A DNA stretch of 64,000 nt from an uncultured Methanosarcinales archaeon (lineage in GTDB: Archaea > Nanobdellota > Nanobdellia > Woesearchaeales > UBA12501). Positions 43,606 to 62,615 of the stretch are shown here, piece after piece (the stretch's first letter is position 1; each line of letters opens with the position of its first letter). The notes beneath the pieces are model-generated. The model saw only the letters and a list, made by a program, of their open reading frames with translations. It did not search any database and was not told the DNA's origin. The position numbers and the translations under genes were made by a program. The stretch spans positions 447-64,446 of the forward strand of contig CAYFJX010000008.1 of assembly GCA_964343705.1 (NCBI GenBank), in the 5' to 3' direction.

Positions 43606-44703
43606 TCAAGCAGCAGGGTTCTTTGGATCAACTGCTTCTTTGTGACCTGGATGTGAGTCATGCTCTGGTTTGTGCTGGGGCTGTTGTTGCTGACCTGCTT
43701 GACCAGATTCCAATTCTTTGTGCGCTTGATCAATAACTTTGTGATCTATCCCTTGGTTTCGTAAGTGTGCAGTTATCTGCTGCTTGCTATGCCCAAGTTT
43801 ACTATATTGATCAATGTACGTTTTGATATGACCGCTTGAGAATTGTGTTGATTTTGTCATGCTACATGGAGTGTGATTCTTACTTTGATGATGTGCAAAG
43901 AAAATGCCTCCACCAATAACAACAACTGCTCCTATAACAAGTAAAATAATCATCCATAAACTTGATCCTTCTTCACTTGATGGCTGCTCGTATGCTTGCC
44001 CAGTTGCTGGAGCTGCAGACGGTGCTGGTTGTGCTGCTGGCTGTTCATATGCTGGCTCAGGAGCAGCAGGTTCTTCATAAGATTCTTCTTCATACACTGG
44101 CTCTGCAGGCGGAGGAGTGTACGGTGCTGGTGCTGCAGGAGGTGGCGTGTATGGTGCTGCAGCTGGTGTAGGTGCAGGAGGAACATAAGGTGCTGCAGGC
44201 GGAGGAGAGTAAGCTTCAGGCTCTTCATACTCTTCTTCTGGTTCTTCATATGCTGGTTCTTGTGCTTCAAACACTGGCTCTGGCGCAGGTGGAGGAGCTG
44301 CGCCACCCACTGTTAGTGTTGTGTCCCCACCAATATCTTGTTGACCACTTTGCATTGTTGCTTTACCTTCAAAAGTAAATGTGCCTGATGCGCCAGCAGG
44401 AATTTTCACTGTGTAGGTAAAATCTGTTGATTCTACTGTACCTGTTAAGCCATCAATAAGTGCTTTTCGAAGATTATTTTTGTCGTTGAGTTTTCCATCT
44501 TCATACATTTCTAGTCCTTCTGGGACAACTTCGTTAAGAAGCAGTGATTGTTCTGATCCTTCTTCAACAAATGATAGTGTTACGGTGATTTCATCTCCAG
44601 GCATTGCTTCTGTTGATGAGAGTGATCGAGTCATAGAGGAAGCTGCCAACACACTTTGTAAACAAAGTATAAATACAATACTAATTATGAGTGTTTTTTT
44701 CAT
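43606..44703 (-). CDS. 365-aa surface protein: signal peptide, one beta-sandwich module, Pro/Ala/Glu/Tyr stalk, TM anchor, cytoplasmic helical tail
   Basis: SP MKKTLIISIVFILCLQSVLA. Module MTRSLSS..GDEITVTLSF..SLLLNEVVPEGLEMY..ALIDGLTGTVEST..MQSGQQDIGGDTTLTV. TM LWMIILLVIGAVVVIGGGIFF. Tail IKTYIDQYSKLGHSKQQITAHLRNQGIDHKVIDQAHKEL. Confidence 0.85.
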   Translation of the reverse strand: MKKTLIISIVFILCLQSVLAASSMTRSLSSTEAMPGDEITVTLSFVEEGSEQSLLLNEVVPEGLEMYEDGKLNDKNNLRKALIDGLTGTVESTDFTYTVKIPAGASGTFTFEGKATMQSGQQDIGGDTTLTVGGAAPPPAPEPVFEAQEPAYEEPEEEYEEPEAYSPPPAAPYVPPAPTPAAAPYTPPPAAPAPYTPPPAEPVYEEESYEEPAAPEPAYEQPAAQPAPSAAPATGQAYEQPSSEEGSSLWMIILLVIGAVVVIGGGIFFAHHQSKNHTPCSMTKSTQFSSGHIKTYIDQYSKLGHSKQQITAHLRNQGIDHKVIDQAHKELESGQAGQQQQPQHKPEHDSHPGHKEAVDPKNPAA

Positions 44704-44704
44704 G

Positions 44705-47700
44705 TTATGCTCCTCCTTGTGGTGGTTTTGGTTTCTTTTTGAAAAATGCTTTGAGCTTATCCATGAAACCTGGCTTTGTTGCTCCTGCTGGGGCTGCTGG
44801 TTTTGCAGCAGCTGGTGTTGCTGGCTTGCCTGCTTCAGGTTTCTTTTTGAAAAATGACTTTAGTTTGTCCATGAAACCTGGCTTTGTTGCAGCTGCACCT
44901 GCTGCTCCTGCAGCCACTGCTGGTTTTGCTGCTCCAGGCACAGGTGGTTTTGCTGGATCTTTAGGCACACCCAAGTCTTTATATATTTTGTCGAGGAATT
45001 TCTGAGGTACACCATATTGTGCAAGGTGTTTGGTCAATTGTGACCTTGTGTAGCCGTGCTGAGAGTAATACTTGATGTAATCAATTATTTTCTTTTTCTT
45101 GTAGTCAGGGATTGCTGCAAGCTTTTTGTTTTCCATGTAATTGTATGCAAATGCTCCGCCGCCTCCAAGTACGCCAAGGATAACACAGATTATAATAATC
45201 CACAGCCAGATTTTTGGTTCTTTTTCTTTTGGAATGTCAAGTATTGGACCACTACCTGTTGGTTGTCGTGGGTAGGTGTCTGGGATTTCTTCGTCTGGTG
45301 CAGGAGGTGGAACATACGCTTCAGGGTCTTCAAGTGGCATGCTTGGAAGTCCGCTTGGTGCGGTTGCAATGCCATCGTCTGGTCGTGCTGGAGCTGCTGG
45401 TGCAGGACCGCCTGGTACACCACAGTCTTGTGGGCAGTTCAGTTGGTTTTCTCCAAATGCTGCTTGACAAAGGCCGTCGCCGCAGATTACTTGTCTGCTG
45501 AGTCGTGAACCTCGGCCGCCACGTCCTCGTCGGCCGCCACCAGTACCGCCTCCTGCTTGGTTGTTTCCACCATCATTGCCACCTTGTTGTTGGACAACAA
45601 CTTGTGGAGCTTTACACTCTCCATTTTGGCAGGTAGTTCCTTCGTCACAAACAACATCTTCTTGCGTGTATCCTTGACCATCACAAGTATATCTTGTGAG
45701 CACATTGTTAGTACATACTGGGTTGTGTATTTCAACACCCGCTGCAGTTACAACACGCACTGCTCCAGTACTTGGAGCTGTACAACCACTTTGTGGTTTG
45801 CATACACCCACAATGCATCCATACTGGCATGCTTGTGGTGCAACTGCTGCTGCTACATTTTCATTACATTGGAATTGGTTAACATTTGCACCGTCACACA
45901 CGTCACGTTCAACACGTAGCTCTTTGGTGTTTGCGTCAAAGTAGCGTACACGATCTTTTTTGTCTTTGTTGTTTGTTGTGTCAAACTCAAAGCAGTATGC
46001 TGTTGCAAAGACTTGGTCAAAGCATGCTGCATTGTTAGGATCTTGGATGGCTACACGTAGCTGGTCGTCATTCTTGCCTCGTAGTTCGTTCACTTTTCCA
46101 GTGCATGCAGCATCAAGACCATCAGGGATACATGACCCAAGGAATTGCCGTACTGGTTCAAGCAGTGCGCCATTGTGGTGCGCTGCGTTAGTAATATTAA
46201 TTGCCAAGCTTTTACAGAGTGGAATCGCTGGATACGGCTTGAGTATGCACTCATTGTTTTCACATGTTTCGTCGCCAGGACAGTCATAGTCTCCTGCGCA
46301 TTGAGCACCAGGTTGTCGAATACCATCACACTCATCTGATGGACATTGTGCACATGCTTGTTCTTGCACTGTTACAAAGTTTTGCTCACTGCACTGGTAG
46401 GATACTTTTCTACAGTTTTCTCCTTCACAGGTTGCAGCTGGGTCAAAGGTTGAAATTTCAGCTGTTGCAAGCCATTGTTGAATCAGCTCTGGCATAAGCA
46501 CTGGTTCTGGTGGAGGTGCTGCTTGACACTGTGCATTGCTACACTGGTTTGCACATGCCTGTGATTGCTTGGTAAGCATGTTTGTTGTTGGATCACAACT
46601 GTACGCGACTGATGAACACCCTGCTCCTTCACAGGTTGGTACTGGCTTGAAGCGCGGTAGTTGTCCTTCAAGGAATTTCTTTAATTCTTCTGGAACAAGG
46701 ACTGGATCTGGGAGTGCTTCGGGAGGTTGCTGAGGAGGTGCACCACCTGCAACAACTTTAATACCATTATCACCACCAATATCAAACTGGCCACTTTGCA
46801 GAGTGTATTTTCCTACAAACTCATGCCATTTGAGTTCTGCATTTTCAGGTATATTTATTTTGTAAGTAAGTGTCTGAGATGAGGGTGGTTCTCCCATCCC
46901 ACCTTCCATAAACAATTTCTTGAAATTATTATTTGCAACGACTTTGTTATCCACTACAAGTTGAACACCTTCTGGAACTTGCTCATTAATAATAAGGGAT
47001 TGTTCTTCAGCAACTTCAGTGATAGTCAATGTAACTGTTGCACTGCCACCTTGTGGTGCGTCAGGAGGTTGAATAGATCTAGTGACAAGGGTACGTGCTG
47101 CCGGGGGTGCCTGAGCACCCTCAACAACTCGAACACCATTGTCACCAATAATACCTTGTTGACCGGATTGTAGTGTATACACACCTGAGAACTCGTGGAT
47201 TTTTAGTTCAGCATCAGCTGGAATCTCCACTGTGTATTGTATATCTTTTGTGCTTGGGGCTTCTCCCATGCCACCTTCCATAAACAATTTCTTGAAATTA
47301 TTATTTTTGACTTGTTTACCATCAACAATTAATTGTAATCCTTCAGGAACTTGCTCGTTGATAATTAGTGATTGTTCTTCACCCACTTCTTCAACATGCA
47401 GTGTTACTGTAACACGTCCTCCCCGTGGTCCGTCAAATGGTTGTATAGAACGTCGTACTGTTGTTGCCTGACCAGGCGGTGGAGGTGGTTGACCACACAC
47501 ACCGTCTAAACATGAGCCTGTTTGACAATCAACATTTTCATCACATTTGCCACCCGGTTCTTGGTGCACTGCACATTTTTTAAAATCACCATCAGGAATA
47601 CAAACAAGACCACTGTTTGCGTCACAGTTAGCATTTATTTTACACATTTCACCATCTCTGCGGTTTCCGTCCCGTGTACAATCATTTACAACACACACTT

Positions 47701-48181
47701 GTTCTGCAGGGCATGCTGTGTCAAGGTTTGCACATCCAGGAGGTGGTTGTGGTGCTTCTGCTTGTTGAATACCAACTGTTAATGTAGCAGGTCCTGCAAT
47801 ATCTTGCTGGCCAGCTTGTAATGTTACTTTTCCATTGAAATTGTACTCGCCTGGTTGTGCATTGTCAGGAATATGAAGTTTGTACGTGAAATCACCTGTT
47901 TCAACAGTACCTGTAAGACCATCAATAACTGCTTTTTTGTAATTATTACTTTGCACAGGATTACCATCAACAAATAACTCAAGGCCGTCTGGAGAATTTT
48001 CATTAATAATTAGAGAAGGTTCCTCACCAACTTCTTCAAAGTGAAGTGTTACTGTGACATCACTACCAGGTGCAGCAGAGTCTGCAGAGAATGAACGCGT
48101 AAGTGTTGACCCAGGTGCAGCTAGTACAAGAGGAACTAGTAATACTACTACAATAATCCACTTTACTAATTTGTCATACAT
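44705..48181 (-). CDS. 1158-aa (1171 from the alternative start at 48220) surface protein: three beta-sandwich modules, Cys-rich modules, TM anchor, repeat-bearing basic tail
   Basis: SP MYDKLVKWIIVVVLLVPLVLA. Three copies of the TVTL..SLIINE.VPEG module. Two P.L.PE...L....PTCEG..C....Y.C modules. TM WLWIIIICVILGVLGGGGAFAY. Tail with YIKYYSQHGYTRSQLTKHLAQYGVPQKFLDKIYKDLG and 2 x KPGFMDKLK.FFKKKP. Confidence 0.85.
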   Translation of the reverse strand: MYDKLVKWIIVVVLLVPLVLAAPGSTLTRSFSADSAAPGSDVTVTLHFEEVGEEPSLIINENSPDGLELFVDGNPVQSNNYKKAVIDGLTGTVETGDFTYKLHIPDNAQPGEYNFNGKVTLQAGQQDIAGPATLTVGIQQAEAPQPPPGCANLDTACPAEQVCVVNDCTRDGNRRDGEMCKINANCDANSGLVCIPDGDFKKCAVHQEPGGKCDENVDCQTGSCLDGVCGQPPPPPGQATTVRRSIQPFDGPRGGRVTVTLHVEEVGEEQSLIINEQVPEGLQLIVDGKQVKNNNFKKLFMEGGMGEAPSTKDIQYTVEIPADAELKIHEFSGVYTLQSGQQGIIGDNGVRVVEGAQAPPAARTLVTRSIQPPDAPQGGSATVTLTITEVAEEQSLIINEQVPEGVQLVVDNKVVANNNFKKLFMEGGMGEPPSSQTLTYKINIPENAELKWHEFVGKYTLQSGQFDIGGDNGIKVVAGGAPPQQPPEALPDPVLVPEELKKFLEGQLPRFKPVPTCEGAGCSSVAYSCDPTTNMLTKQSQACANQCSNAQCQAAPPPEPVLMPELIQQWLATAEISTFDPAATCEGENCRKVSYQCSEQNFVTVQEQACAQCPSDECDGIRQPGAQCAGDYDCPGDETCENNECILKPYPAIPLCKSLAINITNAAHHNGALLEPVRQFLGSCIPDGLDAACTGKVNELRGKNDDQLRVAIQDPNNAACFDQVFATAYCFEFDTTNNKDKKDRVRYFDANTKELRVERDVCDGANVNQFQCNENVAAAVAPQACQYGCIVGVCKPQSGCTAPSTGAVRVVTAAGVEIHNPVCTNNVLTRYTCDGQGYTQEDVVCDEGTTCQNGECKAPQVVVQQQGGNDGGNNQAGGGTGGGRRGRGGRGSRLSRQVICGDGLCQAAFGENQLNCPQDCGVPGGPAPAAPARPDDGIATAPSGLPSMPLEDPEAYVPPPAPDEEIPDTYPRQPTGSGPILDIPKEKEPKIWLWIIIICVILGVLGGGGAFAYNYMENKKLAAIPDYKKKKIIDYIKYYSQHGYTRSQLTKHLAQYGVPQKFLDKIYKDLGVPKDPAKPPVPGAAKPAVAAGAAGAAATKPGFMDKLKSFFKKKPEAGKPATPAAAKPAAPAGATKPGFMDKLKAFFKKKPKPPQGGA

Positions 48182-48204
48182 GGTATCATTGATGAAATGG
48201 TTGC

Positions 48205-51201
48205 TTAGCCTTTCAGCCAAGCTCCAATTGATTGAGTAAGTTTCAAGTCATTCATAGGATCCTTGTCTGCCTTGAGCCACCATCCAATATACATGGATAG
48301 CTCAAGATCACTGATCTTTCCATCACAAGGATCTGTATCTCCTGGAAGTTCACACTTTGCTGGTCCTGCCAGTTGTTTATCTTCTTTTGGAGGTTCAACT
48401 GGTGCTTCAGGAGGTTTTGCAGCTGGCAAGCACACATTGTCTTTACCACATGCAAGTCCATCATCACACTTGGGTTCTTGGTCACGGCAGAACTGGTTCA
48501 AGTTACCTTTGAGTACTGGTTCTTCAGCAGGTGGTTCTGCTGCAGGTTCTTTTGCTTGTGCACCAACACACACGCCACCTTCACACTTGCCGCTTGCACA
48601 AAGGAGTCCTATCTGACATGCTGAGCCATCTCTTCCTTTGCAAACACCATCTGAGCATGCGTTATCAGGACGACATTGATTATCAGATTCGCAAGGAAGC
48701 TGTTGGAATCGTCGCAATTCTAATTTGCCATTGACATCAACACAGGAGTGATAGAAACTATCTTTTCCACCTTCACCCATGCTATCATCTTTGATCGCGA
48801 CAACACTAGCACCAAGTTCATTACATTCATAACCAGTAGTTTGACTGAGCAATCTGATCCAGCTGAGTGCATCACCAACATTAATACATTTGTGTCCAAC
48901 ACCATCAATGTCTTGTAGTGCGCCTTCTTGTTGGCAGATGCCACCTGCTTCTGTAGGCCCTTTGTCATTCAAGTCACCTTCAACACATGCACCGTCTTTA
49001 CAAACAGCACCTACTGATACACAATCAAACTCTTCAAAACCAACTTGGTTATGTTGATTGCAATTACGATCTTGCACAAAGTTTTCTTTACCTTCTGCAC
49101 CACTACACACATCTTCGTATTCTTCATTGAATCCAAACATGACTTTAGAGGGAATAAATGCCTGAGTAGGAAGTAATTCACCACTTGCAGCGTCAAAGTC
49201 AACACACTTACCTTCTTGGGGATATGGTTCACCTGGTTTTGGATCAGGAACAATCACGCATCGTCCATTTTCACAATAGTAAGGTTGGCCAACGCTGTTC
49301 TTATATTGAGCACAATCTACTGGTTGATATTCTAAAACACCCGCGGAACACACAGCCTCATTAAGTTGATTGTGTACACCTTGATCACACACATCTTCAA
49401 GGCGTTGTTCTCCAAGACCCAGAATTGCAACAGCTTTTGTCACCACTTGTTCACTGACAGGAGTGTTACCTTGCAGATTATCATTGTCTTTACATGCAAC
49501 ATCTCCACTACACATGCCATCAACACAAGATAAACTTGCACAGTCAATATTACTATGACAAGACTGCCCAACATCATTAACACACCTGCAAGATTCATGT
49601 GCAACACCAAGTCCTGCGCACTCATCTTTCTTGCCCATCTTATTACAGATTTTTGATACACACTGTCGTCCTTCAGTGCAAAGGTCACTGCCTACTGTCA
49701 TTTCTCCACAGACATTACCTTGGAACGTGTTACACCAGCCAGTATTACACTGGTCATTGGTCATGCAAGCTTCACCAATGTTTTTACCTGCACATTTATT
49801 TTCTAAACAGTTCCTTGTTTTACACATGTCACCTGGGCTGTTAATACCTGGAACAACACCCACAACTTGCTTAACTAGTGAGAATCCATTACATTGTGCA
49901 CCTGCAGGCCGTAACTCACACTCTTTAGTAGTTGGGTTACAGTAATCAAGTACACACTGACCATCTGTTTCACACGCACCGCCTAGTGGTTGTGCTTCAC
50001 AGATTCCTGTTGGTTGTAGTCCTTTCCTATTATCATTAGGATCTACCCATTCCCTTTTACACCTGTTTGATGTACAAGTGTTCTTTCTTCCAATTACTTG
50101 ACATGCTTCACCATTAGCAGATCCAGTACATACACCTGCTACACACTGCCCTGTTTTACACTGGTCAGCATTTTCACATTCTGCGCCAACAGGGTACCAT
50201 TTACACTTGCCACTTGGGTGGTTTCTGTCACCTTCTTTGCTAAATAGTTCACATTTTCCTTCACATTGATCATCTGATTTACATGGCTTACCTTCTTCAA
50301 AAAGTTTACATGTTTTTGGAACATTTTTACCCATGTATGGACAATTATCACTAAGACATTCTTTTTTAGCTTTACATGTTGCTCCTAGTGGTTGCTTTGC
50401 TGCACATGTCTTGGTTGATCTTTCACAGTATTCTGTAGCAGGACAATCCCTATCACGGTTACATGCTGCTCCACTACCAACAAGTTTTGGTGCTTCACCA
50501 ACAACTGGTTCTTCAACAACAGCACCTTCTGCTGCACATGCACCATTATTACAACTGTTACATTGCAAGATTTCTTTTTTAATAAGTCCTCGTTCATCGC
50601 ATGAATATTTAATTACATTACAATTTGCTCCTTGGCAGGTTGGAGTCATAAGTTCTCGTGACGCTCCACCTTGTAAGTATTGCATAAGTGCTGGAGGTAA
50701 GAACGGTCTACCAATCATTGCTTCTTCAAGAGGGGATAATTCAGGTTCGGGAGCAGGTTCTGGTTCAGGGTCAGGTGCTGGAGGAGCTGCTTGGGCAACA
50801 CTAACACTTGTTGCACCTGAAATAGTTGCAGGATCTTTACCAAGTACTTTTGTAACACCTGAAAATGATGCTGGGCCTTGATTAGCAGGTGCAGTTGCAG
50901 TATATTCCAAATCCATATCTCTAACACCATTCATAGCAGTCCGTAACCATTTGATAACATTCCCATTAAGATTTCCGCTTTCTGTAATACCAGACACTTG
51001 CCAGCCTGCAGGAATTGTTTCTTCAATAATAACACCAGATGGAACATTTGCTTCATCAACATCCATTTTTAAAGTGACTTTCATAGAGCCCTGTGGAACT
51101 AGGGTTGGCGTACTTACTTCTCGTGAAACTGATACAGCGTGTGCTGCAGGAAGTACCACTAGTAGTACCATTACTACCATTATTAGTTCACGAGTTCGCA
51201 T
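48205..51201 (-). CDS. 998-aa secreted Cys-rich protein with N-terminal beta-sandwich module and C-terminal dockerin-like repeats
   Basis: SP MRTRELIMVVMVLLVVLPAAHA; divergent module VSREVS..GSMKVTLKM..GVIIEETIPAGWQV; about 100 Cys; C-terminus DTDPCDGKISDLELSMYIGWWL..DPMNDLKLTQSIGAWLKG. Confidence 0.85.
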   Translation of the reverse strand: MRTRELIMVVMVLLVVLPAAHAVSVSREVSTPTLVPQGSMKVTLKMDVDEANVPSGVIIEETIPAGWQVSGITESGNLNGNVIKWLRTAMNGVRDMDLEYTATAPANQGPASFSGVTKVLGKDPATISGATSVSVAQAAPPAPDPEPEPAPEPELSPLEEAMIGRPFLPPALMQYLQGGASRELMTPTCQGANCNVIKYSCDERGLIKKEILQCNSCNNGACAAEGAVVEEPVVGEAPKLVGSGAACNRDRDCPATEYCERSTKTCAAKQPLGATCKAKKECLSDNCPYMGKNVPKTCKLFEEGKPCKSDDQCEGKCELFSKEGDRNHPSGKCKWYPVGAECENADQCKTGQCVAGVCTGSANGEACQVIGRKNTCTSNRCKREWVDPNDNRKGLQPTGICEAQPLGGACETDGQCVLDYCNPTTKECELRPAGAQCNGFSLVKQVVGVVPGINSPGDMCKTRNCLENKCAGKNIGEACMTNDQCNTGWCNTFQGNVCGEMTVGSDLCTEGRQCVSKICNKMGKKDECAGLGVAHESCRCVNDVGQSCHSNIDCASLSCVDGMCSGDVACKDNDNLQGNTPVSEQVVTKAVAILGLGEQRLEDVCDQGVHNQLNEAVCSAGVLEYQPVDCAQYKNSVGQPYYCENGRCVIVPDPKPGEPYPQEGKCVDFDAASGELLPTQAFIPSKVMFGFNEEYEDVCSGAEGKENFVQDRNCNQHNQVGFEEFDCVSVGAVCKDGACVEGDLNDKGPTEAGGICQQEGALQDIDGVGHKCINVGDALSWIRLLSQTTGYECNELGASVVAIKDDSMGEGGKDSFYHSCVDVNGKLELRRFQQLPCESDNQCRPDNACSDGVCKGRDGSACQIGLLCASGKCEGGVCVGAQAKEPAAEPPAEEPVLKGNLNQFCRDQEPKCDDGLACGKDNVCLPAAKPPEAPVEPPKEDKQLAGPAKCELPGDTDPCDGKISDLELSMYIGWWLKADKDPMNDLKLTQSIGAWLKG

Positions 51202-53716: not shown

Positions 53717-56098
53717 TTACTTTAGTTGTTGTTCTTGTGCGTGTTGTTTTATTTCGCCAAAGAAGAGTGGCATCCTAGATTTAATGCGAGCAATTTGTTC
53801 CTTGTCACTTCCATCAAATAATCCAGGCAAGTGTTTTCGAATAATAGACTCAATAACTGCCTCACCAATTTCATCTTTGATGTTATTCTTTGCTAGCCAT
53901 ACACCCAGCTCACGAGAATGAGCAAGACCCATACCAACAAGAACCTCACCAACCGGATCAACTTTTGTAGTTAAGCCCACTTTGTATTCCATTTGACGAG
54001 CCCACGGACCAGCAAGAGGTTCAACTAACTTTGTGATTTCTTTACTGTTTTTCATAAGACGAGCAGTCGGCCTACCCCAATAATGGTAACCAGACAAGAC
54101 AAGCCTGTCAAGTTTTTCATCTGCGTATTTGTTGCTTGCGTCTGTTAGACGATCTGATAAGAGACCTTGCCGGTTTAATTCTGTACAGATTACACTTGCC
54201 ACAGCACATTTACCATCAGTACAAGTGGCTTTACATTCAACAGCTGATCTACATGACGCACCAATATCTTTTTTTGCAGCACACTTTTTACGGTTACAAT
54301 AAAGAGTGGATTCACAATCAGCATGCTGAGAACATTTTTGCCCTGCTCTCTTTTTTGCTGGTGCGGGAGGGGGTGTTCCTTGTTGTTGCTGTTGTTGTGG
54401 TGCTGGTTGTGGTTCTGCTTGTTGTCTTTGTTGACAGGTACCATCCTTACACACATGCATTCTGCTTTTACATTGTTTTGTACTATAACATGATTGTCCT
54501 TCTTCTGCTTGGGGAGCGCAAGCACCATCAGTACACAAGTTAGAATTACATTGCCTATGAGTTACACATGGTTTACCCGGACGTTCGCGTCGCTGGCACT
54601 TCTTACCTCGATTAGTTTCTTTACAATACAAACTATGTTCGCACTGAGCATCTAGTTCACATGGCTTATTATTTTTAATTAATTTAAATGATCCTTTTGG
54701 CCAGCAGGTTCCAACACCATACATGTTTATTTCAGCGCAGTGATTAGATGAACACTGACTATTTTCACTACAAGAATCACCTAATTGACCACGTGAAACA
54801 ATGCAATCAATTTTCCCTCTTCCAGAACCTTTTGAAAATCCTTCATCACAGTGGTAACTAACTTGGCGTCCTTGTCGTTGTTCACGAGCAACACCATTAC
54901 GCCGCGCTGGCTGTCCTCGGGTGACACACGCACCGTCAACACAGACTTTTCCTAAAGAGGCACAATCAATCCTTTTTGATTCACGCTTTCCATTTTTACA
55001 TACTCCTTCTGCAAGACCTTCTGGTTCATTTTTTGTAGGTGTGCAGCTATCAGAAATTGCTCGTGTGTCAGCAAACACATACGATCGAACTTCTGCTTGC
55101 TTGTTTGTATTTCCTCTGCCTGCATCTTCGTCTCTACAGTTAGCCTTTTGCTTACACTGTCCTAAATAACAGAATCCACTACTGCATTGCGTGTTTCGTA
55201 CACATGATTTGCCATTGCCAATTTTTGACGCACACACTTGTGCTTTGTCAAGTTTAAACTGGTTTCTTTTTGCGCCTCCTGAATACAATGGCCACCTACA
55301 AATTTGGTTGCCTGTACAATCAGATTCTTCATAACACTTGTCAATACTGTCAATGTTTACAGCCGCTGCTTGCACTTCAGGTACTTCTTCAGCAGGAGGT
55401 GGTTGTGGAGGAGGTGCTTGAACTTCTGGTTGTTGGGGAGCATGCCGAGGAGCTGGTTCAGGTTGTGGTTCTGGTACTTCAGCAGCTAGTCCTACGAGTG
55501 GAGCGTCTTGACACTCACCATTAACACAGTTACAATCTTCTTCTCCAATACGAAGATCTCTGTCATCACATGACACATATCCTCGCTTGCCTGATTCAGC
55601 AGCAATAACATAATTATCGTCGATACAGTATGATCTGAAGTTTTCTCTTTTACCACCATTGTGAGTAAAAATAATATTACCCGGATTGTTTTCATCAAAG
55701 ACACATCGTTCCCCAACAAGAAGCATATTTAGTTTTGGAGGTGCACCGCCAGGTTGTGAACCAGTAGAACAAGAATTTCGTTTTGCATTTTCATTAGTGA
55801 TAGTTTCAGCAATAGTAAACTCGCCTGCTTGCACTGTTGAAACACCCACACAACCGCTACCATCACACCTACATTCTATGTCTGCAACAGCTAATCCTGA
55901 CACAGATGGTTCTTCAACAAGCACAATTTCGTTTGATTCCAGTAAGAAAAGACTTGCAGCCATTAGTGCGAGTACAGCAACAAAGAATAGGGTTTTGTCT
56001 TTGGGTAGAGAGGGCTTTGCCTGTTTAGAATATACTTTATGCCTCTTCCGAGCAGCCCCCTTTTTTGCGTGCTCTTTTTTTACTTTTTTATCTACCAT
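53717..56098 (-). CDS. 793-aa secreted Cys-rich protein with a 156-aa Cys-free C-terminal domain shared with the next gene
   Basis: N-terminal TM LFFVAVLALMAASLFLL then SVSGLAVADIEC; Pro-rich linker; many CX5-6C..G.C knots; C-terminal CTELNRQGLL...LPGLFDGSDKEQIARIKSRMPLFFGEIKQ. Confidence 0.85.
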   Translation of the reverse strand: MVDKKVKKEHAKKGAARKRHKVYSKQAKPSLPKDKTLFFVAVLALMAASLFLLESNEIVLVEEPSVSGLAVADIECRCDGSGCVGVSTVQAGEFTIAETITNENAKRNSCSTGSQPGGAPPKLNMLLVGERCVFDENNPGNIIFTHNGGKRENFRSYCIDDNYVIAAESGKRGYVSCDDRDLRIGEEDCNCVNGECQDAPLVGLAAEVPEPQPEPAPRHAPQQPEVQAPPPQPPPAEEVPEVQAAAVNIDSIDKCYEESDCTGNQICRWPLYSGGAKRNQFKLDKAQVCASKIGNGKSCVRNTQCSSGFCYLGQCKQKANCRDEDAGRGNTNKQAEVRSYVFADTRAISDSCTPTKNEPEGLAEGVCKNGKRESKRIDCASLGKVCVDGACVTRGQPARRNGVAREQRQGRQVSYHCDEGFSKGSGRGKIDCIVSRGQLGDSCSENSQCSSNHCAEINMYGVGTCWPKGSFKLIKNNKPCELDAQCEHSLYCKETNRGKKCQRRERPGKPCVTHRQCNSNLCTDGACAPQAEEGQSCYSTKQCKSRMHVCKDGTCQQRQQAEPQPAPQQQQQQGTPPPAPAKKRAGQKCSQHADCESTLYCNRKKCAAKKDIGASCRSAVECKATCTDGKCAVASVICTELNRQGLLSDRLTDASNKYADEKLDRLVLSGYHYWGRPTARLMKNSKEITKLVEPLAGPWARQMEYKVGLTTKVDPVGEVLVGMGLAHSRELGVWLAKNNIKDEIGEAVIESIIRKHLPGLFDGSDKEQIARIKSRMPLFFGEIKQHAQEQQLK

Positions 56099-56130: not shown

Positions 56131-56144
56131 CATTTATAAAGTTT
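56131..56144 (-). promoter_or_regulatory. BRE/TATA-like box (minus-strand AAACTTTATAAATG) upstream of the 793-aa gene
   Basis: Lies about 35 nt upstream of the ATG at 56098. The same AAACTTTWTAAA core occurs upstream of genes starting at 33097, 35328, 5185, 59506 and 62615. Confidence 0.4.
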
Positions 56145-56146
56145 GT

Positions 56147-59100
56147 TTATTTTTTGCTTTGTTTTTGCTCCATTGCATATTGTTTTATTTCCCCATAGAA
56201 TAGTGGCATTCTAGTCTTAATCCGTGCAATTACTTCTTCTTCTGTGCCATCAAATAAGCCAGGAAGATAAGTACGTAGGATTGTTTCCATTGCTTCTTCA
56301 CTAATCTCTGATTTTGCCATGCCGTTTTCTACAAGCCAGACACCAAGTTCGTGTGAAAAGTCTTCTGCAATACTCAAGACAACTTCACCAACCTGATCTT
56401 CTTTTTTGGTGACTCCCATTTGATGTGCTACATAGCGGCCCCAAGCTAGACCAACTGGTTTTACAATCTCTGTTATGTCGCTTGATTTTTTCATAAGACG
56501 TGCTGTAGGCTTAGCACCATAATGATACCCAATCATATTGTACTTGTCCAGTTTTTGATCTGCAAAGTCAGCACTAGCTTTATGATGAGAATCAGGCATA
56601 AAACCTTGCCTGTTTAGCTCGGTGCAAACCACCTTACATTTTCCATTTTGACATCCTTTGGTACATTCAGCACCTTCACTACATGAAGCTCCCGTTGTCT
56701 TTTTTGCTGCACATTTTTTATTTGCACAATATAACCCTGCATCACAATCAGTGTGTGCAGAACATGACTCTCCTGCTTTCTTTTTTGGTGGAACATAACA
56801 TTTGTTGTTACGACACGTACCTGTTGAACAATCACCTGTTGTAGCACAATAACTATTTGGCGGAGCTTTGAAGTTATGACATGTCTTAGGAGCACCTTGT
56901 TGAGCTGGTCGACAAGAGTTGTAATTAAAATTCCAATCTTTACATTCATCATCAGTATTACACTCCCGTGGACCAGGTTTGTCCTCGCAAACTCCTTTGA
57001 ATTGTCCTTGCACTTTTGTTCGTTTACATTGTTTGTTTCGATCATCACAGTCCGGACTTTGCACACATTGTGAGTCTTCATGCACATCGAGACAGCTGGT
57101 TTCTTCTGTGTAACATACTTGGTTTTCACCACATTGATGACTGTATAAACATTTTTTAGAACACTTGTTGTTGTTACATTCCATAGGAGATTTGCAATCA
57201 GACTTTGCCTCACAATATTCACCTGCTTCCCCTGGAACAGGCCTACAAAGACGAGATAAAACAGCAGGATCATCTCCATACTGAATTAGATCCATACTAC
57301 ATGTCGCGCGACCATCGCAATCATCGTCTGTCACACATTGAGGTTGACCTCGGAATGAATAACACATACTTTCATGACATCCTTCACCTTCATTACAGTC
57401 ATCATCAGAAGCACAACCCTCATCAAGAACAGGTGTTGTTCCACCTTCTGTACACAGTCCAACAGTTGGATTACATGCAAGACCTGCATTTCGGTCACAG
57501 AGATCATTGATTACATCACATTCTTCACCTTCTCCAAGTTCACCTGGGCCACCAATGAGTCCGAGTGGTTCTCCACCTTGCATTGCTCGTACACCAGGTT
57601 CCCCTACAACAATTGTTGCTTGCATACTTTCCATTCCTTCATGAGGAATGCAGTAGTAAGGGAATGTTCCTGCAGTGTCAAAAGTGTGAGTAAATGTTGC
57701 TGATTGTGCCATCCAATCAGCTTGATCAGAACCAGAATCAAAACTACCATCTCGTGCAGTCACTGTATGTTTTGAGACATCATTATTAGTCCATACTACT
57801 GTGTCACCGACGTTAATAGTAAGTTCTTGAGGAGTAAAAGTAAAACTTTCAATAGCTATTTGATGTGTTTCCGCTTGATTACCTAAAAGCTGTAATTGAC
57901 CTTGTGCACATACACCACCTGCTTCGAGATTACATACACCACTTGCACAGTTACGGTTTTCACTACAATCCCCACCATCTTCAATAGCAACGCAAACACC
58001 GCCTTCACAAATATTTGATGCACACCTATCTGATGATGGACATGCTTGACCTGTTGCAATAAGTTCATCACCTTGCTCTGGTGGTTGATCTGGTGCTGGA
58101 GGTGGTTGATCACCAGGAGGTTGATCCCCCGGGGGTGCACCATCTGGAGCTGGTGGAGCACCGATTGCATTAGGGTCACCAATGCCAATACTTTGTGCAC
58201 CAAAGATGTTAAACTGGCCAGATTGTAGTGTAAAAATTCCTGAGAATGTGTACCAGCCTGGTGCAGCGTCAAGAGGAACTCTCACTGTGTAAGTAACTTC
58301 TTGTGACGAGGGAGCTTCCCCTATGCCACCTTCCATGTATAGTTTTCTGAAGAGGTTGTTTTCAACCGGCGCATTGTTTACAACTAATTGTAATCCTTCA
58401 GGCACTGTATCAGTAATAACAAGGGATTGTTCTTCACCTTGCTCATGAATAGCTAGTGTAACAGTAAACTCTCCACCAAGTGGAACAAATGCATTAGACA
58501 TTCGTCGTGTAACATAACTAGAATCTAGAGGAGGAGGTATTTGAGATGCTGCTGCCCTACATGATTTTATAAGAATTTGATACGTTCTTCCAACAGCGTC
58601 AGTGTAGTCACGTGCACTGCTTACAAGACAAACACCACCATCACATTCTGCGTCTGTTCTACATTCTGATTCCGCACCAATTTGTAAACAACGCAGATTG
58701 TAACATCCTTGTCCTTCTGCACATTGATCATCAGTTCTACATTGTCCGTCTGGAACAGGTGGTTGATCTTGTTGTTGTACTTCTGGAGGTTGTTCAGGCT
58801 CGCCTGGTTGTGCTGCAACACACACTTTCTCCTGACAGGTTAAACCATCTCCACAATCATCAACATACTCGCACGCGCCACCTGCAAGAACAGTATAACA
58901 GCGACGGCCAAGACCATTCATTTTATCTACACAGCCTTTGTTAGCATCAGCAACAGTGCAGTCTTCGTTTGAATCACACCGCAGAAGATTAGTACAGTCA
59001 CCATCTTGACAGCCACATTTTATTATGTTTATTTGCGCGTCTTTTCCAGAACAAACATTTTTAATAAGTTTTTTTGACGACGGTACTGTTTGATAATTCA

Positions 59101-59506
59101 TGTCACTACAGCCACTTTTAAGACCTTGAAGATTACCATTGGCAAGCGTCAATGAAACAATGCCATTTTGCGAGGAACATGCTTGACCTTGTAAAAGAAA
59201 ACTTCTGAGTGTGCTTGCAGGTTTTTTAGTTACTGTTGCACACGTTGTTTTTTTGGTTGCTTTTTGTGCTATTTCAAAGGGCCCTGTTTGGCCAAGGAGC
59301 ATAACCCCACTTGTTTGTGCAGCGTTAGCACTGCATTCCGCATCAGGACGTGCAATCACTTGCCCAGTGATCCCTACTGGACTGTATATAACTGAAATTG
59401 CTCCGAAAACAACAATAAGAAACGCTGCAATGAGTGCAGGATTATTATATCTGGACAGAGTACTCTGAAGTCTACCAACTAATCCCCTTTTTTGTGGTTT
59501 TTTCAT
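56147..59506 (-). CDS. 1119-aa secreted modular protein containing a cupredoxin (amicyanin/plastocyanin-like) domain
   Basis: N-terminus KRGLVGRLQSTLSRYNN-TM-VGITGQVI. One beta-sandwich module (about 58178-58513). Cupredoxin at about 57602-57868 with ligand pattern H(KHTV)...C-I-P-H-E-G-M. C-terminal CTELNRQG domain (about 56150-56626). Confidence 0.85.
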   Translation of the reverse strand: MKKPQKRGLVGRLQSTLSRYNNPALIAAFLIVVFGAISVIYSPVGITGQVIARPDAECSANAAQTSGVMLLGQTGPFEIAQKATKKTTCATVTKKPASTLRSFLLQGQACSSQNGIVSLTLANGNLQGLKSGCSDMNYQTVPSSKKLIKNVCSGKDAQINIIKCGCQDGDCTNLLRCDSNEDCTVADANKGCVDKMNGLGRRCYTVLAGGACEYVDDCGDGLTCQEKVCVAAQPGEPEQPPEVQQQDQPPVPDGQCRTDDQCAEGQGCYNLRCLQIGAESECRTDAECDGGVCLVSSARDYTDAVGRTYQILIKSCRAAASQIPPPLDSSYVTRRMSNAFVPLGGEFTVTLAIHEQGEEQSLVITDTVPEGLQLVVNNAPVENNLFRKLYMEGGIGEAPSSQEVTYTVRVPLDAAPGWYTFSGIFTLQSGQFNIFGAQSIGIGDPNAIGAPPAPDGAPPGDQPPGDQPPPAPDQPPEQGDELIATGQACPSSDRCASNICEGGVCVAIEDGGDCSENRNCASGVCNLEAGGVCAQGQLQLLGNQAETHQIAIESFTFTPQELTINVGDTVVWTNNDVSKHTVTARDGSFDSGSDQADWMAQSATFTHTFDTAGTFPYYCIPHEGMESMQATIVVGEPGVRAMQGGEPLGLIGGPGELGEGEECDVINDLCDRNAGLACNPTVGLCTEGGTTPVLDEGCASDDDCNEGEGCHESMCYSFRGQPQCVTDDDCDGRATCSMDLIQYGDDPAVLSRLCRPVPGEAGEYCEAKSDCKSPMECNNNKCSKKCLYSHQCGENQVCYTEETSCLDVHEDSQCVQSPDCDDRNKQCKRTKVQGQFKGVCEDKPGPRECNTDDECKDWNFNYNSCRPAQQGAPKTCHNFKAPPNSYCATTGDCSTGTCRNNKCYVPPKKKAGESCSAHTDCDAGLYCANKKCAAKKTTGASCSEGAECTKGCQNGKCKVVCTELNRQGFMPDSHHKASADFADQKLDKYNMIGYHYGAKPTARLMKKSSDITEIVKPVGLAWGRYVAHQMGVTKKEDQVGEVVLSIAEDFSHELGVWLVENGMAKSEISEEAMETILRTYLPGLFDGTEEEVIARIKTRMPLFYGEIKQYAMEQKQSKK

Positions 59507-59535
59507 TATCCCGTTTAAAAATAGAGCTATTTCCT

Positions 59536-59550
59536 TTTATATAGTTTGTG
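59536..59550 (-). promoter_or_regulatory. BRE/TATA-like box (minus-strand CAAACTATATAAAAGG) upstream of the 1119-aa gene
   Basis: About 30-40 nt upstream of the ATG. The flanking 50 nt align with the upstream region of the 1009-aa gene (62616-62670). Confidence 0.4.
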
Positions 59551-59585
59551 TTTTGGTGAATAGAAAGTGAAAAGAAGAGCCTAAT

Positions 59586-62500
59586 TTAAATGAAAGCATG
59601 CCATGGATACTCTTTCACACAATAACTATTTACGCAGACAAGATCACCATTACATTCTCCAGCTGAACATGGCATGTTAAAACCATTACGTTCAAGATCC
59701 CCTTCTCCAGTACCATCTATGCATTGGTTGTAGATACATTTACCCTTTACACACTCTTTATCATTACTACAAAACATACCAATACCTGCAAGACAGCGCA
59801 TTCCTGCTTGATCACTTGCTTGACAAGTGTACCCCATCTCACATTGTTTATTTATGAAACAGTAATCAGTTGCCCCCCCTGCATTCTGCCTATAGCTTAT
59901 CTCTTCACTTACAGCGTCAGCATAGGCACCACTTGAGTCAGTGTTAAGCTGGATAGTTACATCCCTCACATTAAAGCCCATGGTTGAAATTCGTTCTATG
60001 GTGAATGCGTCATGAGTATTTCCCCAATTACCAGTTGAATCGCTTCCCGCAAGAATTTTTACTGTGTTGGTTTCTCCTGATCGAAGGCGTTCACGAGGAA
60101 TAACAACATGTACTGCACGTTCTTGCCCGTCTTTTAGAACAGGGTCATTTCCTTGCACATAAATTTGTTTGTTCATACGATATACATAGTCAGAATCTTC
60201 AGCAGGATTTTTTACAAAGTAAGTTACAAATTGTCCTGCCCTGTATGCAAGGCTGTTACTACTAACTAAACCTTTTGTAGCAACATTAAAGACCAATTGA
60301 TCAGACCCTTCATTGATATACGGATCAAAAGTAATAATTGCTTCTTTCACCCCATTAGGTCCAAATTCAATTGCATCATTTACCAGTACTGGCTGGCCTA
60401 GTGTTTCTTGAAGTTCTCTTCGTGCTTCAGCTTCAGCTTCAGCAGCAGCTTGCCGTTGTCGTTCTTCAGCAGCTGCACGCTCGGCTTCAGCTTGCCCTTG
60501 CATTTCAGCAAATCCTTCTTCACTAAAAATACATGCCTTGCTTGCAGGATTACAGGTTAAGCCAGGTTTACATCGCGCATAGCCTTCACCACATGGGTGA
60601 CCAAAGTCTCCTGAAGGTGTTCCTTCACAAATGCCTTCCCCTGGACCTTCTTTTTTACATATGCCACTGTCACAATCATTGTGATAGTTACATGCACCAC
60701 CTATTGGACTTACACACCTGTTAAATCCTGGGCCTAATTTTTTACATATACCTGTTGCACATTGCTCGTTTCCTCGACAATCACTACCAAACTGCATTGT
60801 TTGACATGATCCTTGCCAGCAGAAGTTTGATTGACATTGTGCAAAGCTTTGACATGCTTCACCTTCTGATTTCCCTGAACAAGCACCATTGTCACATTTT
60901 TTAGTCATACACATGTCATCTGCAATGTTCATAAACTGGTTTTTAGGTGTGTTCATGTGTGCTTTTTGCTCGTCAGTTGGCATGAAACATTCCATCCCAG
61001 CAGGTCTTAATTCACATTCTTCAGATTTACTGTTACAATAACCAAGAACACATTGTTCATCTATTGCACACCGTCGTCCAAGTTGTTGTGGCTTACATGT
61101 TTTATCAGGACTCACACCTGTGAAGTCTCCGTTTTCATCAAATAAGTTGTCACCAGCGCATTTACCACTGAAACATTCTTTTGCTGTGGAACATGCTTCG
61201 CCATTTGGCTTGCCACCACATGCTCCGTCAATACATTGATTTGAATCGCATTGTTCATTAGTGTCACAAGGGAAGGTTACAGGTCGTAAACGACATTGGG
61301 ATTTACAATACCCTGTAAGACATTGCTCGTGACGGTCACATGCTTTTCCTTTTGCAACCATTTCACACTTTTGCGTTTTTCGATTACACATCCCTTGAAT
61401 ATGCCCTTTACAATCCCTACTTGTTTTACATGCAATGTCTGGTAGGTCTGGTCGTTGTGCAGGTGGAGCTGGCAAGCCAGCAATAGTAAGTTTGTAATCT
61501 CCTGCAATATCAGTTTGCCCGCTTTGCAGTGTTCGTTTTCCAATAAAGATGTAGTCTCCACCAATAACATCTTGAGGGATTTCGACTTCATACGTAAACT
61601 TTGTTGACTCAACAGTGCCTGTTAAACCGTCGACAATTGCTTTTCTGTAATTGTTTGCTGGAGCACGCTTACCATCTTTTAATAATTCTAATCCAGTTGG
61701 CACTTGCTCATTAATAATAAGAGAGGGTTCTTGCCCAACTTCCTGGAAATGTAACGTAACAGTAACTTTGCTTCCAGGTGCAGGTGTTTTAGTGTTAAAA
61801 GTTCGTGAAAGGAGTGACTTTCCAGGTGGTGCTTGAGCTGCTTGGCCCACAACTGGTTCTTTTACAGGTTCCTTAGCTGGTGGAGGTGAAGGAGCTACTG
61901 CAACAAGAGGAGCTTCACCACTTGTACAAATATTATTAATACAGTTTAATTCACCAACGCAATCATCAAGAAAATGACAAGCAGCACCTTCTTGGAGATA
62001 ACATCTTTTGCCAAGGCCATTTCCTTTGTCTACACATTCACTTTGCGCATTTTGTACTCTGCAATCTTCTGTTGCAGCGCACTGCTTTAAGTTTTTACAG
62101 TCGCCATTGTCACAATCACATCCAATAATGTTTAGTTTGACGTCTTTATTATCATTATAACAAAAAGATTTTACCAGCTTAGCTGATGTTGCAGCTTCAG
62201 CATATCCTGCTGCTGTACACCCACTTTTGAATCGTTTCTTTGTGCCTCCCTCAAGTGTGAGTGTAAGAATTCCTGCAGCATCTTCACACAGTTCACCAAG
62301 TAACAAAAAACTTTTTACTGACGCGGCAGGGTAATTTTCTTGTTGACCACAACTGTTTTGCTTACTCATTTTACCAGCAACAGCATACGGTCCCGCTTGG
62401 CCAAGAAGCATAACACCGGTTGCAGTTCCACCTACAGCAGTACATTCTCCTGCAGGTCGTGCAATGGCTTTACCTGTAATACCAATAGGACCATACATCA

Positions 62501-62615
62501 AAGAAAACAAGCCAACTCCAATAATAAAAACAGCAGCAATTACAGCAAGATTGTTGTACCTGGATAAAGTACTCTTAAGACTATCACCTAACCCTCTTTT
62601 TGCTGTCTGTTTCAT
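59586..62615 (-). CDS. 1009-aa secreted modular protein, N-terminal 230 aa paralogous to the 1119-aa protein
   Basis: N-terminus KRGLGDSLKSTLSRYNN-TM-IGITGKAI; one beta-sandwich module (LSRTFNT..SKVTVTLHF..SLIINEQVPTGLELL); Cys knots; AEAERAAAEERQRQAAAEAEAEARRELQ helix followed by a Cys-free beta domain. Confidence 0.85.
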   Translation of the reverse strand: MKQTAKRGLGDSLKSTLSRYNNLAVIAAVFIIGVGLFSLMYGPIGITGKAIARPAGECTAVGGTATGVMLLGQAGPYAVAGKMSKQNSCGQQENYPAASVKSFLLLGELCEDAAGILTLTLEGGTKKRFKSGCTAAGYAEAATSAKLVKSFCYNDNKDVKLNIIGCDCDNGDCKNLKQCAATEDCRVQNAQSECVDKGNGLGKRCYLQEGAACHFLDDCVGELNCINNICTSGEAPLVAVAPSPPPAKEPVKEPVVGQAAQAPPGKSLLSRTFNTKTPAPGSKVTVTLHFQEVGQEPSLIINEQVPTGLELLKDGKRAPANNYRKAIVDGLTGTVESTKFTYEVEIPQDVIGGDYIFIGKRTLQSGQTDIAGDYKLTIAGLPAPPAQRPDLPDIACKTSRDCKGHIQGMCNRKTQKCEMVAKGKACDRHEQCLTGYCKSQCRLRPVTFPCDTNEQCDSNQCIDGACGGKPNGEACSTAKECFSGKCAGDNLFDENGDFTGVSPDKTCKPQQLGRRCAIDEQCVLGYCNSKSEECELRPAGMECFMPTDEQKAHMNTPKNQFMNIADDMCMTKKCDNGACSGKSEGEACQSFAQCQSNFCWQGSCQTMQFGSDCRGNEQCATGICKKLGPGFNRCVSPIGGACNYHNDCDSGICKKEGPGEGICEGTPSGDFGHPCGEGYARCKPGLTCNPASKACIFSEEGFAEMQGQAEAERAAAEERQRQAAAEAEAEARRELQETLGQPVLVNDAIEFGPNGVKEAIITFDPYINEGSDQLVFNVATKGLVSSNSLAYRAGQFVTYFVKNPAEDSDYVYRMNKQIYVQGNDPVLKDGQERAVHVVIPRERLRSGETNTVKILAGSDSTGNWGNTHDAFTIERISTMGFNVRDVTIQLNTDSSGAYADAVSEEISYRQNAGGATDYCFINKQCEMGYTCQASDQAGMRCLAGIGMFCSNDKECVKGKCIYNQCIDGTGEGDLERNGFNMPCSAGECNGDLVCVNSYCVKEYPWHAFI

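Follow-up and report, generated by a model that had tools for sequence, protein, structure and literature searches.

Seven adjacent genes on the minus strand of the 64,000-nucleotide stretch of contig CAYFJX010000008.1 analysed here (the window), together with one detached paralogue, encode a clade-specific set of paralogous, modular surface proteins that appear to be stabilised by disulfide bonds and to lack glycosylation. Most likely they build a fibrillar attachment coat, a reading that we hold with a confidence somewhat above even. The genes are named by the length of their products in amino acids (aa), and their modules carry the letters (a) to (f) under which an earlier reading of the DNA (the sequence-only reading) introduced them; module (a) is immunoglobulin (Ig)-like, and TM denotes a transmembrane segment.

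43606-44703, minus strand: g365, 365 aa; signal peptide, one Ig-like module, Pro/Glu-rich stalk, TM at residues 251-269, cytoplasmic three-helix tail; ectodomain without Cys
44705-48220, minus strand: g1171, 1171 aa from TTG, start probably at the ATG at 48181, giving 1158 aa; signal peptide, three Ig-like modules, two copies of module (d), two of module (c), a CGDGxC...CPQDCG knot, Pro-rich stalk, TM at residues 1006-1024, cytoplasmic three-helix tail
48205-51201, minus strand: g998, 998 aa; divergent Ig-like module, module (d), 10 or more Cys knots, module (c) twice, dockerin-like tail
51229-53715, minus strand: g828, 828 aa; N-terminal anchor, Cys knots, Cys-free beta domain, Ala-rich helix, basic knots, module (c) twice, dockerin-like tail
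53717-56098, minus strand: g793, 793 aa; N-terminal anchor, diverged module (e), Cys knots, module (c), C-terminal helical phage-like domain
56147-59506, minus strand: g1119, 1119 aa; N-terminal anchor, module (e), Cys knots, one Ig-like module, cupredoxin, more Cys knots, C-terminal helical phage-like domain
59586-62615, minus strand: g1009, 1009 aa; N-terminal basic segment and TM anchor, module (e), one Ig-like module, about 13 Cys knots, then an Ala/Glu/Arg helix, a Cys-free beta domain and three terminal knots
33196-35334, minus strand: g712, the detached paralogue, 712 aa from TTG or 710 aa from an in-frame ATG; N-terminal anchor, acidic repeat, Lys-rich stretch, Cys knots, C-terminal domain without assignment

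The seven open reading frames (ORFs) of the array have the positions and lengths given by the sequence-only reading, and the eight genes together cover 21,149 nt, the predicted share of about 33% of the window. Gaps between the genes were put at 1-79 nt; five of them (1, 27, 1, 48 and 79 nt) fit that range, but g1171 read from its TTG overlaps g998 by 16 nt, and the ATG start preferred by independent gene calls leaves a gap of 23 nt. Such calls on ENA assemblies recovered the same genes in five samples of project PRJEB17505, intact in every assembly that carries them. All-against-all BLASTP comparisons reach E values down to 3e-76, far beyond chance, and establish paralogy. BLASTP, the Ig-module profile and the occurrence of modules (c) and (d) across proteins likewise bear out the reshuffling of modules between paralogues. 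At 365-1171 aa, the products are large and not, as first described, giant. Their description as Cys-rich suits seven of them (3.9-7.8% Cys) but not g365 (0.5%), whose two Cys residues both lie outside the ectodomain. The literature yielded neither a description of Cys-rich Woesearchaeal surface arrays nor a paper on project PRJEB17505.

The proposed host, a small-genome archaeon, agrees with the archaeal chromosomal context and with AtpB, which is 75-87% identical to proteins from metagenome-assembled genomes of Woesearchaeota/Nanoarchaeota and 59-68% identical to those of other lineages; the host is therefore a Woesearchaeote, a tiny-celled archaeon of the DPANN group. The window also encodes an H+-pyrophosphatase, an A/V-type ATPase operon, asparagine synthase, glycosylation genes, an SMC protein with a LAGLIDADG intein, and RNase HII.

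Module (a) links the array to known stalk proteins. Its copies, located with a hidden Markov model (HMM) built from six of them, are:

44302-44649 (g365); 47768-48115, 47120-47470 and 46748-47101 (g1171); 61476-61823 (g1009), minus strand: module (a)
58175-58528 (g1119); 50791-51141 (g998, weak), minus strand: further copies of module (a)

Six copies match strongly (independent E values of 1e-55 to 1e-59) and the g998 copy weakly (6e-07); the spread over five proteins and the two subtypes reported earlier are real, but the copies number seven, not eight. A profile of all seven retrieved 1847 cluster representatives from 1.84 billion proteins, many with 3-30 tandem copies. The best matches carry the Pfam domains DUF11, NPCBM_assoc, bMG10 or BatD, and the named homologues are annotated 'COG1361 family protein' (Methanohalophilus), the others being hypothetical proteins from Altiarchaeota and Woesearchaeota. 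In the PDB, the profile found one weak match (E = 0.074), the CLIPPER domain of 9IFR. CLIPPER (DUF11) domains are isopeptide-bonded stalk units of fibrillar adhesins in bacteria and archaea, and some DUF11 domains are without the isopeptide bond (PMC12617251). In the array, one to three copies occur in each of five exported proteins with Pro-rich linkers alongside, a stalk-type arrangement. By these sequence matches, module (a) appears to be an ordinary archaeal stalk domain of the COG1361/DUF11 (CLIPPER) type. The possibility raised at the outset, of an ordinary characterised family with synteny across unrelated archaea, applies to module (a) insofar as its family is ordinary and widespread, but not to the array as a whole, for which no such synteny was seen. 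Word-index homologue searches with the Ig-module alignment or the whole of g1119 returned nothing or the query alone, their candidate lists being swamped, probably by low-complexity words, and a scan of genome contigs with the Ig-module alignment found no relative.

The ectodomains also contain small Cys modules, among them:

51757-51948, minus strand: module (c), small all-beta with six Cys, reference copy in g828
51397-51630, 49249-49503, 48976-49215, 45791-46003, 45605-45790, 54917-55147, 55502-55714, 58985-59188 and 62088-62297, minus strand: the other nine copies of module (c)
46322-46720, minus strand: module (d), two tandem copies in g1171, with the pattern P.L.PE...PTC(E/Q)G..C....Y.C
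50530-50721, minus strand: module (d), third copy, in g998

The "dozens" of short knots (module b) amount to about 49 four-Cys knots under a loose regular expression, with weak Pfam similarity to Dickkopf_N and DUF7107. Module (c) is present in the 828-, 998-, 1171- and 793-aa proteins, where it was originally noticed, but is more widely distributed, with ten copies in six proteins, since module (e) contains one as its second half. Its AlphaFold2 (AF2) model is a self-contained small all-beta domain (predicted local distance difference test score, pLDDT, 87); Foldseek found no meaningful match for this model in the PDB, where a sequence search gave the rhamnose-binding lectin CSL3 as sole lead (E = 0.27). 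Module (d) occurs twice in g1171 and once in g998, as claimed. Module (e) is indeed common to g1119 and g1009 (47-48% identity) and is found in a diverged form in g793; a metagenome scan with this N-terminal module revealed no relative. The proposed module (f) is less secure: between g828 and g1009, the similarity of the Cys-free beta domains is weak (pairwise E = 2e-4, 26% identity), and the case for a shared module is correspondingly weak. PDB sequence searches with these two beta domains and with the C-terminal domain of g712 were empty.

Two features of composition accompany this architecture. When the cysteines of signal peptides, TM segments, cytoplasmic parts, the copper site and the CTEL motif described below are set aside, the extracellular Cys count is even in all eight proteins, which fits complete disulfide pairing. 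N-x-S/T sequons are scarce: the six Cys-rich array proteins contain 2 where shuffled sequences predict about 30, five of these having none in 4747 residues, whereas the sequon count of cytoplasmic window proteins matches expectation. The depletion recurs in orthologues on a related contig (L092, below) and in a Woesearchaeal protein of similar plan (P0013, below), while in Cys-poor COG1361 proteins of other archaea sequons are enriched 2-3 fold. Together, these counts suggest that the array proteins would be disulfide-bonded and would not be N-glycosylated. Archaeal S-layer families matched none of the array proteins in Pfam or NCBIfam, and a Cys content of 3.9-7.8% with few sequons is unlike the Cys-poor, heavily N-glycosylated S-layer type.

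Export is predicted for the entire set. In a hydropathy scan, from which all topology calls were made, every product has a signal peptide or an N-terminal anchor, and all eight are therefore taken to be extracytoplasmic. Both g365 and g1171 combine a signal peptide with a C-terminal TM segment that leads into a cytoplasmic tail, while g1009, g1119, g793, g828 and g712 have an N-terminal basic segment with a single TM anchor. The product of g998 is probably secreted, since its cleavable-looking signal peptide is followed by no further TM segment. Directly after the hydrophobic anchor, g1119, g1009, g828 and g712 share an (I/L/M)-T-G motif (e.g., at 59356-59370), in the versions GITGQVIARP, GITGKAIARP, AITGQQVRAP and MTGMVSYAD. 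In g712 it recurs: two copies are complete with the acidic stretch behind them, and a third consists of the ITG motif only. This motif may be a processing or sorting signal.

The genes are preceded by the following promoter-like elements:

62644-62662, minus strand: archaeal B recognition element (BRE)/TATA-like element AAAACACAAACTATAAAAA, upstream of g1009
59535-59554, minus strand: AAAACACAAACTATATAAAA, a paralogue of AAAACACAAACTATAAAAA, upstream of g1119
56132-56144, minus strand: AAACTTTATAAAT, upstream of g793
35394-35406, minus strand: TATA-like promoter belonging to g712 itself

The elements of g1009 and g1119 are paralogous (AAAACACAAACTATA(T)AAAA) and lie about 30-45 nt 5′ of the start codons, in line with the earlier claim that paralogous promoters allow some units to be transcribed independently; those of g793 and g712 read AAACTTT(A/T)TAAA. 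Sites that are purine-rich and Shine-Dalgarno-like are present ahead of g998 and g365 at least. From the promoter positions and the gaps of 1-27 nt behind g793, the units would be g1009 alone, g1119 alone, and g793-g828-g998-g1171-g365; thus, there are probably three transcription units, with g793 as the first gene of a five-gene operon. A second exact copy of AAACTTTATAAAT is present at 32814-32826 (minus strand), downstream of g712, with no ORF of 100 aa or more after it on that strand.

Two of the proteins end in tails that resemble dockerins:

51232-51357, minus strand: dockerin/EF-hand-like tail of g828, a duplicated loop-helix (DTSNDGTVDDMELLMFIDKW...DDMELLMAIELW)
48208-48357, minus strand: dockerin-like tail of g998

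An equivalent tail ends many COG1361-type proteins from other archaea, and the tail of one Altiarchaeota COG1361-like protein is 52% identical to that of g828 (E = 5e-16). Dockerin_1 matches 6 of 12 such archaeal tails, at best with E = 3e-11. The g828 and g998 tails are called divergent dockerin-like on the strength of this homology and of the Dockerin_1 matches of the homologues. The first loop of g828, D-T-S-N-D-G-T-V-D-D-M-E, fits Ca-loop positions 1, 3, 5, 9 and 12; its second repeat keeps the helix and part of the loop, and matches to EF-hand structures in the PDB are weak (E ~0.01).

A further domain is found once, in g1119:

57605-57862, minus strand: type-1 copper cupredoxin domain, g1119 residues 549-634 (PF00127)

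The sequence-only reading recognised one cupredoxin and no other enzymatic domain, and this holds: PF00127 matches with E = 3.5e-12 (47.1 bits, above the cut-off of 21.2), and Pfam, NCBIfam and PHROGs gave nothing else. All four copper ligands (His, Cys, His, Met) are kept relative to amicyanin (1ID2), with kHtV/pHnV and yyCiPHegM/yfCtPHpfM around them.

A component that the sequence-only reading had not described is a helical domain that ends two of the array proteins:

56150-56635, minus strand: C-terminal all-helical domain of g1119, with an invariant V-x-C-T-E-L-N-R-Q-G
53720-54202, minus strand: paralogous C-terminal helical domain of g793

Over their last 160 residues, g793 and g1119 show 53% identity. 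Among 5.8 billion proteins, the only homologues were 25 small unannotated proteins of 136-277 aa with an invariant CTELNRQG. All three carrier contigs examined (L004, L006 and L007) have the gene within a structural module that includes an SU10-type capsid gene, and in L004 portal and tail/virion structural genes are near it as well. IMG/VR holds 18 contigs with the domain; it forms the C-terminal end of the protein in 10 of the 10 examined, and both carriers whose neighbours were scanned adjoin tail or virion structural genes. Protein gp49 of Puniceispirillum phage HMO-2011 (YP_008320311.1, 762 aa), whose gene follows the portal gene, also ends in this domain; a tblastn search of GenBank phages with the g1119 domain itself gave no match, HMO-2011 being reached only from a phage-type member. 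The AF2 model is helical and confident (pLDDT 85.5). Foldseek found no meaningful match for it in the PDB, where a sequence search was also empty, and in BFVD it matched uncharacterised Caudovirales proteins (E = 3e-4, template modelling score 0.6). PHROGs did not match the phage carriers. Outside g793 and g1119, the domain turned up solely in virion modules of tailed phages, which is a new observation.

In the podophage proteins, the domain ends products of 136-762 aa encoded among portal, tail and structural genes, and the last ~100 residues of g793 and g1119 share with them the CTELNRQG...GY...P...G pattern and the predicted helical fold. The array proteins differ in being N-anchored, Cys-rich and archaeal, and in having two extra C-terminal helices. 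The T7-like ejection proteins gp14/15/16 were considered as relatives and rejected, since PHROGs, Pfam and PDB folds gave no match to the domain or its phage carriers; a gene position resembling that of gp14 in some podophage contigs is the only likeness.

Related genomes indicate how the array has evolved. One Logan contig (L092) is syntenic with the array and carries, in this order, a partial module (d) gene, the gene of a 572-aa product ending in a dockerin-like tail, orthologues of g1171 (1108 aa) and g365 (374 aa), and the 134-aa gene that also flanks the array in the window. For this flanking gene, identity to the window counterpart is 70%; for the array orthologues it is ~40% where residues align, and large indels and altered module counts set them apart. 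On a second, JGI contig (L095), the tail of g1171 and the 134-aa gene are present, with toxin-antitoxin-like genes where g365 would be. These comprise (L095:372-1052, assigned by eye from translated ORFs) a ribbon-helix-helix (RHH)-like 91-aa gene, an opposed PIN-like 137-aa gene and a 167-aa membrane protein, the first two forming a putative toxin-antitoxin pair. Synteny, faster divergence and differing modules together indicate that the array is conserved in the clade, diverges quickly and is re-tiled.

The sequence-only reading called the array rapidly diversifying. It does diverge faster than its flank and its module number changes between relatives, but there are no signs of ongoing hypervariation. 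Strain-level hypervariability was rejected for the available samples, among whose assemblies DNA comparison showed no more than one single-nucleotide polymorphism per 14 kb. Within the array, no pair of DNA repeats exceeds 80% identity, and above that level there was no recent duplication or substrate for recombination; from both results, shuffling and divergence are therefore old. About 8.7 kb past the window end, upstream of g1009, lies a reverse transcriptase gene (L087:1-1326) with the motif PLGNLTSQFFANIYL (GNLTSQ) of the diversity-generating retroelement (DGR) type, a YVDD motif and a C-terminal HTH_40 domain; between it and the array are genes for a 794-aa Laminin_G_3 protein and a 707-aa transglutaminase-core protein. 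Comparison of its visible flank with the array revealed no template/variable repeat pair, and the array was accordingly rejected as a DGR target.

If these components act together as an attachment coat, a working order can be proposed. All eight products would be exported. The type-I membrane proteins g1171 and g365 would display Ig-like modules on Pro-rich stalks, with their three-helix domain in the cytoplasm, while g1009, g1119, g793, g828 and g712 would be anchored by their N-termini with the C-termini facing outward, and g998 would be released by secretion. Through their Ca-loop/helix tails, g998 and g828 could then dock non-covalently onto a coat partner. Four-Cys knots and six-Cys beta modules would confer disulfide rigidity in place of N-glycans. 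The distal heads, namely the type-1 copper domain of g1119 and the phage-shared helical domain of g793 and g1119, would be candidate contacts to a partner cell or substrate. Expression would proceed from three transcripts: g1009, g1119 and g793-g828-g998-g1171-g365. Docking, adhesion and host contact are inferred roles, the last purely so. A bolder version, to which we assign little probability, makes the array the apparatus by which an episymbiotic Woesearchaeote contacts its partner, assembled through dockerins and armoured by disulfides. In it, the helical head, borrowed from tailed-phage virion proteins or shared with them, would engage or breach the partner envelope (possibly that of a bacterium), the copper head would exchange electrons, and sequon avoidance would keep binding surfaces free of glycans.

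Several observations weigh against an attachment coat. The DUF11 (PF01345) score of the window copies of module (a) is below threshold (g1119, E = 0.018, 15.8 bits against a cut-off of 24.6). In 9IFR, the isopeptide triad consists of Lys715 in the first strand, the catalytic Asp748 (Asp/Glu) and Asn806 in the last strand; the Lys position (VVK) is an invariant Arg (VTR) in all seven module (a) copies, although the acidic residue is retained (SLIINE). An isopeptide bond is therefore not expected in the window copies, and the idea of an isopeptide-stabilised CLIPPER domain was rejected for module (a). Dockerin_1 (PF00404) does not match the g828 and g998 tails even at E <= 10, and Pfam revealed no cohesin or other recognisable dockerin partner in the array proteins or the scanned neighbours in the window. 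The topology has the hydropathy scan as its sole basis, the sequon expectation comes from shuffles that are blind to motif constraints, and both the cupredoxin and the phage-like domain would be atypical as adhesin heads.

Four other explanations were weighed. The proteins could form a structural envelope matrix and not act as adhesins, with intermolecular disulfides producing a rigid cell-wall substitute, as is the case by analogy for chlamydial OmcA/OmcB. The Cys content of 3.9-7.8%, the seven co-oriented genes with strong TATA-like promoters, the DUF11-like module, the lack of a detectable S-layer family protein in the window and the retention of the array in related genomes would all suit such a matrix. 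However, even Cys counts and compact four- and six-Cys units point to intradomain pairing, module (c) is self-contained in its AF2 model, fast divergence and a shifting module number would be unusual for a load-bearing lattice, and the cupredoxin, dockerin-like tails and phage-like heads would have no structural rationale; we regard a matrix as unlikely, though less so than the other three. Extracellular redox or metal handling, in which the cupredoxin and the many thiols would serve to bind copper or electrons, or to pass them on, at the cell surface, for example to draw electrons or metals from a partner, is quite improbable. Despite the intact type-1 copper site in g1119 and the Cu-binding MopE repeats of a Woesearchaeal surface protein (P0081, below), only one of the eight proteins has a copper domain, the window contains no cytochromes, multicopper oxidase or membrane electron acceptors, and the Cys spacing fits disulfide knots and not CxxC or CxxxC metal sites.

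It is also very doubtful that the paralogues are alternative, independently expressed antigens or receptors under pressure from viruses or a host, that is, a variant surface coat or virus decoy analogous to the variant-specific surface proteins (VSPs) of Giardia. Such a coat might be expected from the three promoters, two of them paralogous, from divergence much faster than that of the flank, from module numbers that vary between relatives and from the reverse transcriptase 8.7 kb away. Yet five of the seven genes look co-transcribed, near-identical repeats for recombination and a template/variable repeat pair are missing, the compared sample assemblies are virtually identical, and anchors and heads differ, so that the paralogues are not interchangeable. 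An integrated viral or mobile island with virion-derived genes seems the least credible explanation, and a very remote one. GC content is raised at 44-62 kb, a tRNA-Ser with a duplicated 3′ end adjoins one end of the array and a LAGLIDADG gene the other, and the C-terminal domain is common to phage virion proteins. The GC excess, however, lies at codon positions 1 and 2, and GC content at third positions (GC3) is 0.22-0.27 in the array, overlapping the 0.25-0.34 of compared chromosomal genes. This host-like GC3 indicates that the array is native and not a recent import, the GC hump being a result of amino-acid composition. PHROGs match only the plastocyanin among the eight array proteins; no integrase, capsid or terminase was detected among the window proteins scanned, most flanking genes having been searched with Pfam only; the tRNA repeat is on the far side of the tRNA; and relatives are syntenic beside the same 134-aa gene without the LAGLIDADG gene. 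On GC3 and synteny, a foreign island was rejected.

Comparison with known systems places the array among familiar building blocks. DUF11/CLIPPER (PF01345) fibrillar adhesins and the archaeal COG1361 proteins of Methanothermobacter, Methanosarcinales and Altiarchaeota are, like the array proteins, long, with a signal peptide, repeated ~115-aa Ig-like beta-sandwich modules of the pattern V-T-[KR]...TVTL...E..P.G in stalks, and sometimes dockerin tails. The array differs in having one to three modules per protein among dozens of Cys knots, in the Arg that replaces the isopeptide Lys, and in avoiding sequons, in which the Cys-poor COG1361 relatives are rich. With cohesin-dockerin assemblies, including non-cellulosomal archaeal dockerins, g828 and g998 appear to share a C-terminal duplicated Ca-loop and helix; unlike these, their tails have a truncated second Ca loop, a C...PC pair in the g998 type and no attached carbohydrate-active enzymes, and they fall below Pfam detection. 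A single protein of similar plan is Woesearchaeal P0013 (MBR9701204.1, 1632 aa), which resembles g1171 in its signal peptide, COG1361-like modules alternating with Cys-rich repeats, CGDGxC...DCG knot, C-terminal TM segment and the same cytoplasmic three-helix tail. Its Cys repeats are of the CGDGxLDPGEECDDGN type, unlike those of the array, and a second protein, P0081 (MBW2989157.1), has MopE and LamG repeats; both are encoded by single genes and are without cupredoxin or CTELNRQG domain. Since single proteins of the same plan exist in other Woesearchaeota, the array belongs to a known but uncharacterised kind of DPANN surface protein. It is no new category of system, its Ig stalk, dockerin-like tail, cupredoxin and Cys knots all being familiar.

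Cys-rich surface coats also occur in other small or parasitic cells, such as the chlamydial OmcB/OmcA complex, in which OmcB carries DUF11-type domains, and the Giardia VSPs, which are type-I membrane proteins in paralogous families. Pfam and NCBIfam revealed no sequence relationship between these and the array, which has neither CXXC periodicity nor a CRGKA tail; intradomain disulfides are likelier in it than intermolecular ones.

The neighbourhood contains further mobile and unusual elements. The SMC gene (35413-40542, minus strand, 1709 aa) has its intein directly after Walker A (Pfam matches to Intein_splicing and LAGLIDADG_3). The free-standing LAGLIDADG endonuclease gene (42939-43595, plus strand) lies between the array end and the 134-aa gene (42358-42762); it is missing at that position in L092 and L095 and is therefore a recent insertion. 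The last 27 nt of tRNA-Ser(GCU) (63196-63281), at 63255-63281, are exactly repeated at 63366-63392 (plus strand), ~85 nt downstream and away from the array, in what looks like an att-type scar of integration or excision. A second tRNA (29747-29845, minus strand; Rfam, 44.8 bits) was missed by ARAGORN and overlaps the 3′ end of a LAGLIDADG-domain ORF (29007-29765, plus strand); a match spanning 99 nt suggests an archaeal intron. A DDE transposase of the insertion-sequence type (27570-28529, minus strand) combines DUF772 and DDE_Tnp_1. The protein encoded at 20363-21667 (plus strand) combines Schlafen/AlbA_2, HATPase_c_4 and a winged helix-turn-helix, a combination often tied to defence or regulation.

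Attachment to other cells is the presumed way of life of DPANN archaea, and we know of neither hosts nor attachment molecules for the Woesearchaeota. The array offers a concrete and conserved candidate set of Woesearchaeal surface attachment proteins. It also presents three testable oddities: a blue-copper domain in an adhesin-like protein, a domain otherwise found only in phage virion modules, and a trade-off between disulfides and N-glycans. This last contrast, of Cys-rich and sequon-poor proteins with Cys-poor and sequon-enriched ones, could be a general rule for the stabilisation of exposed proteins in small archaea.

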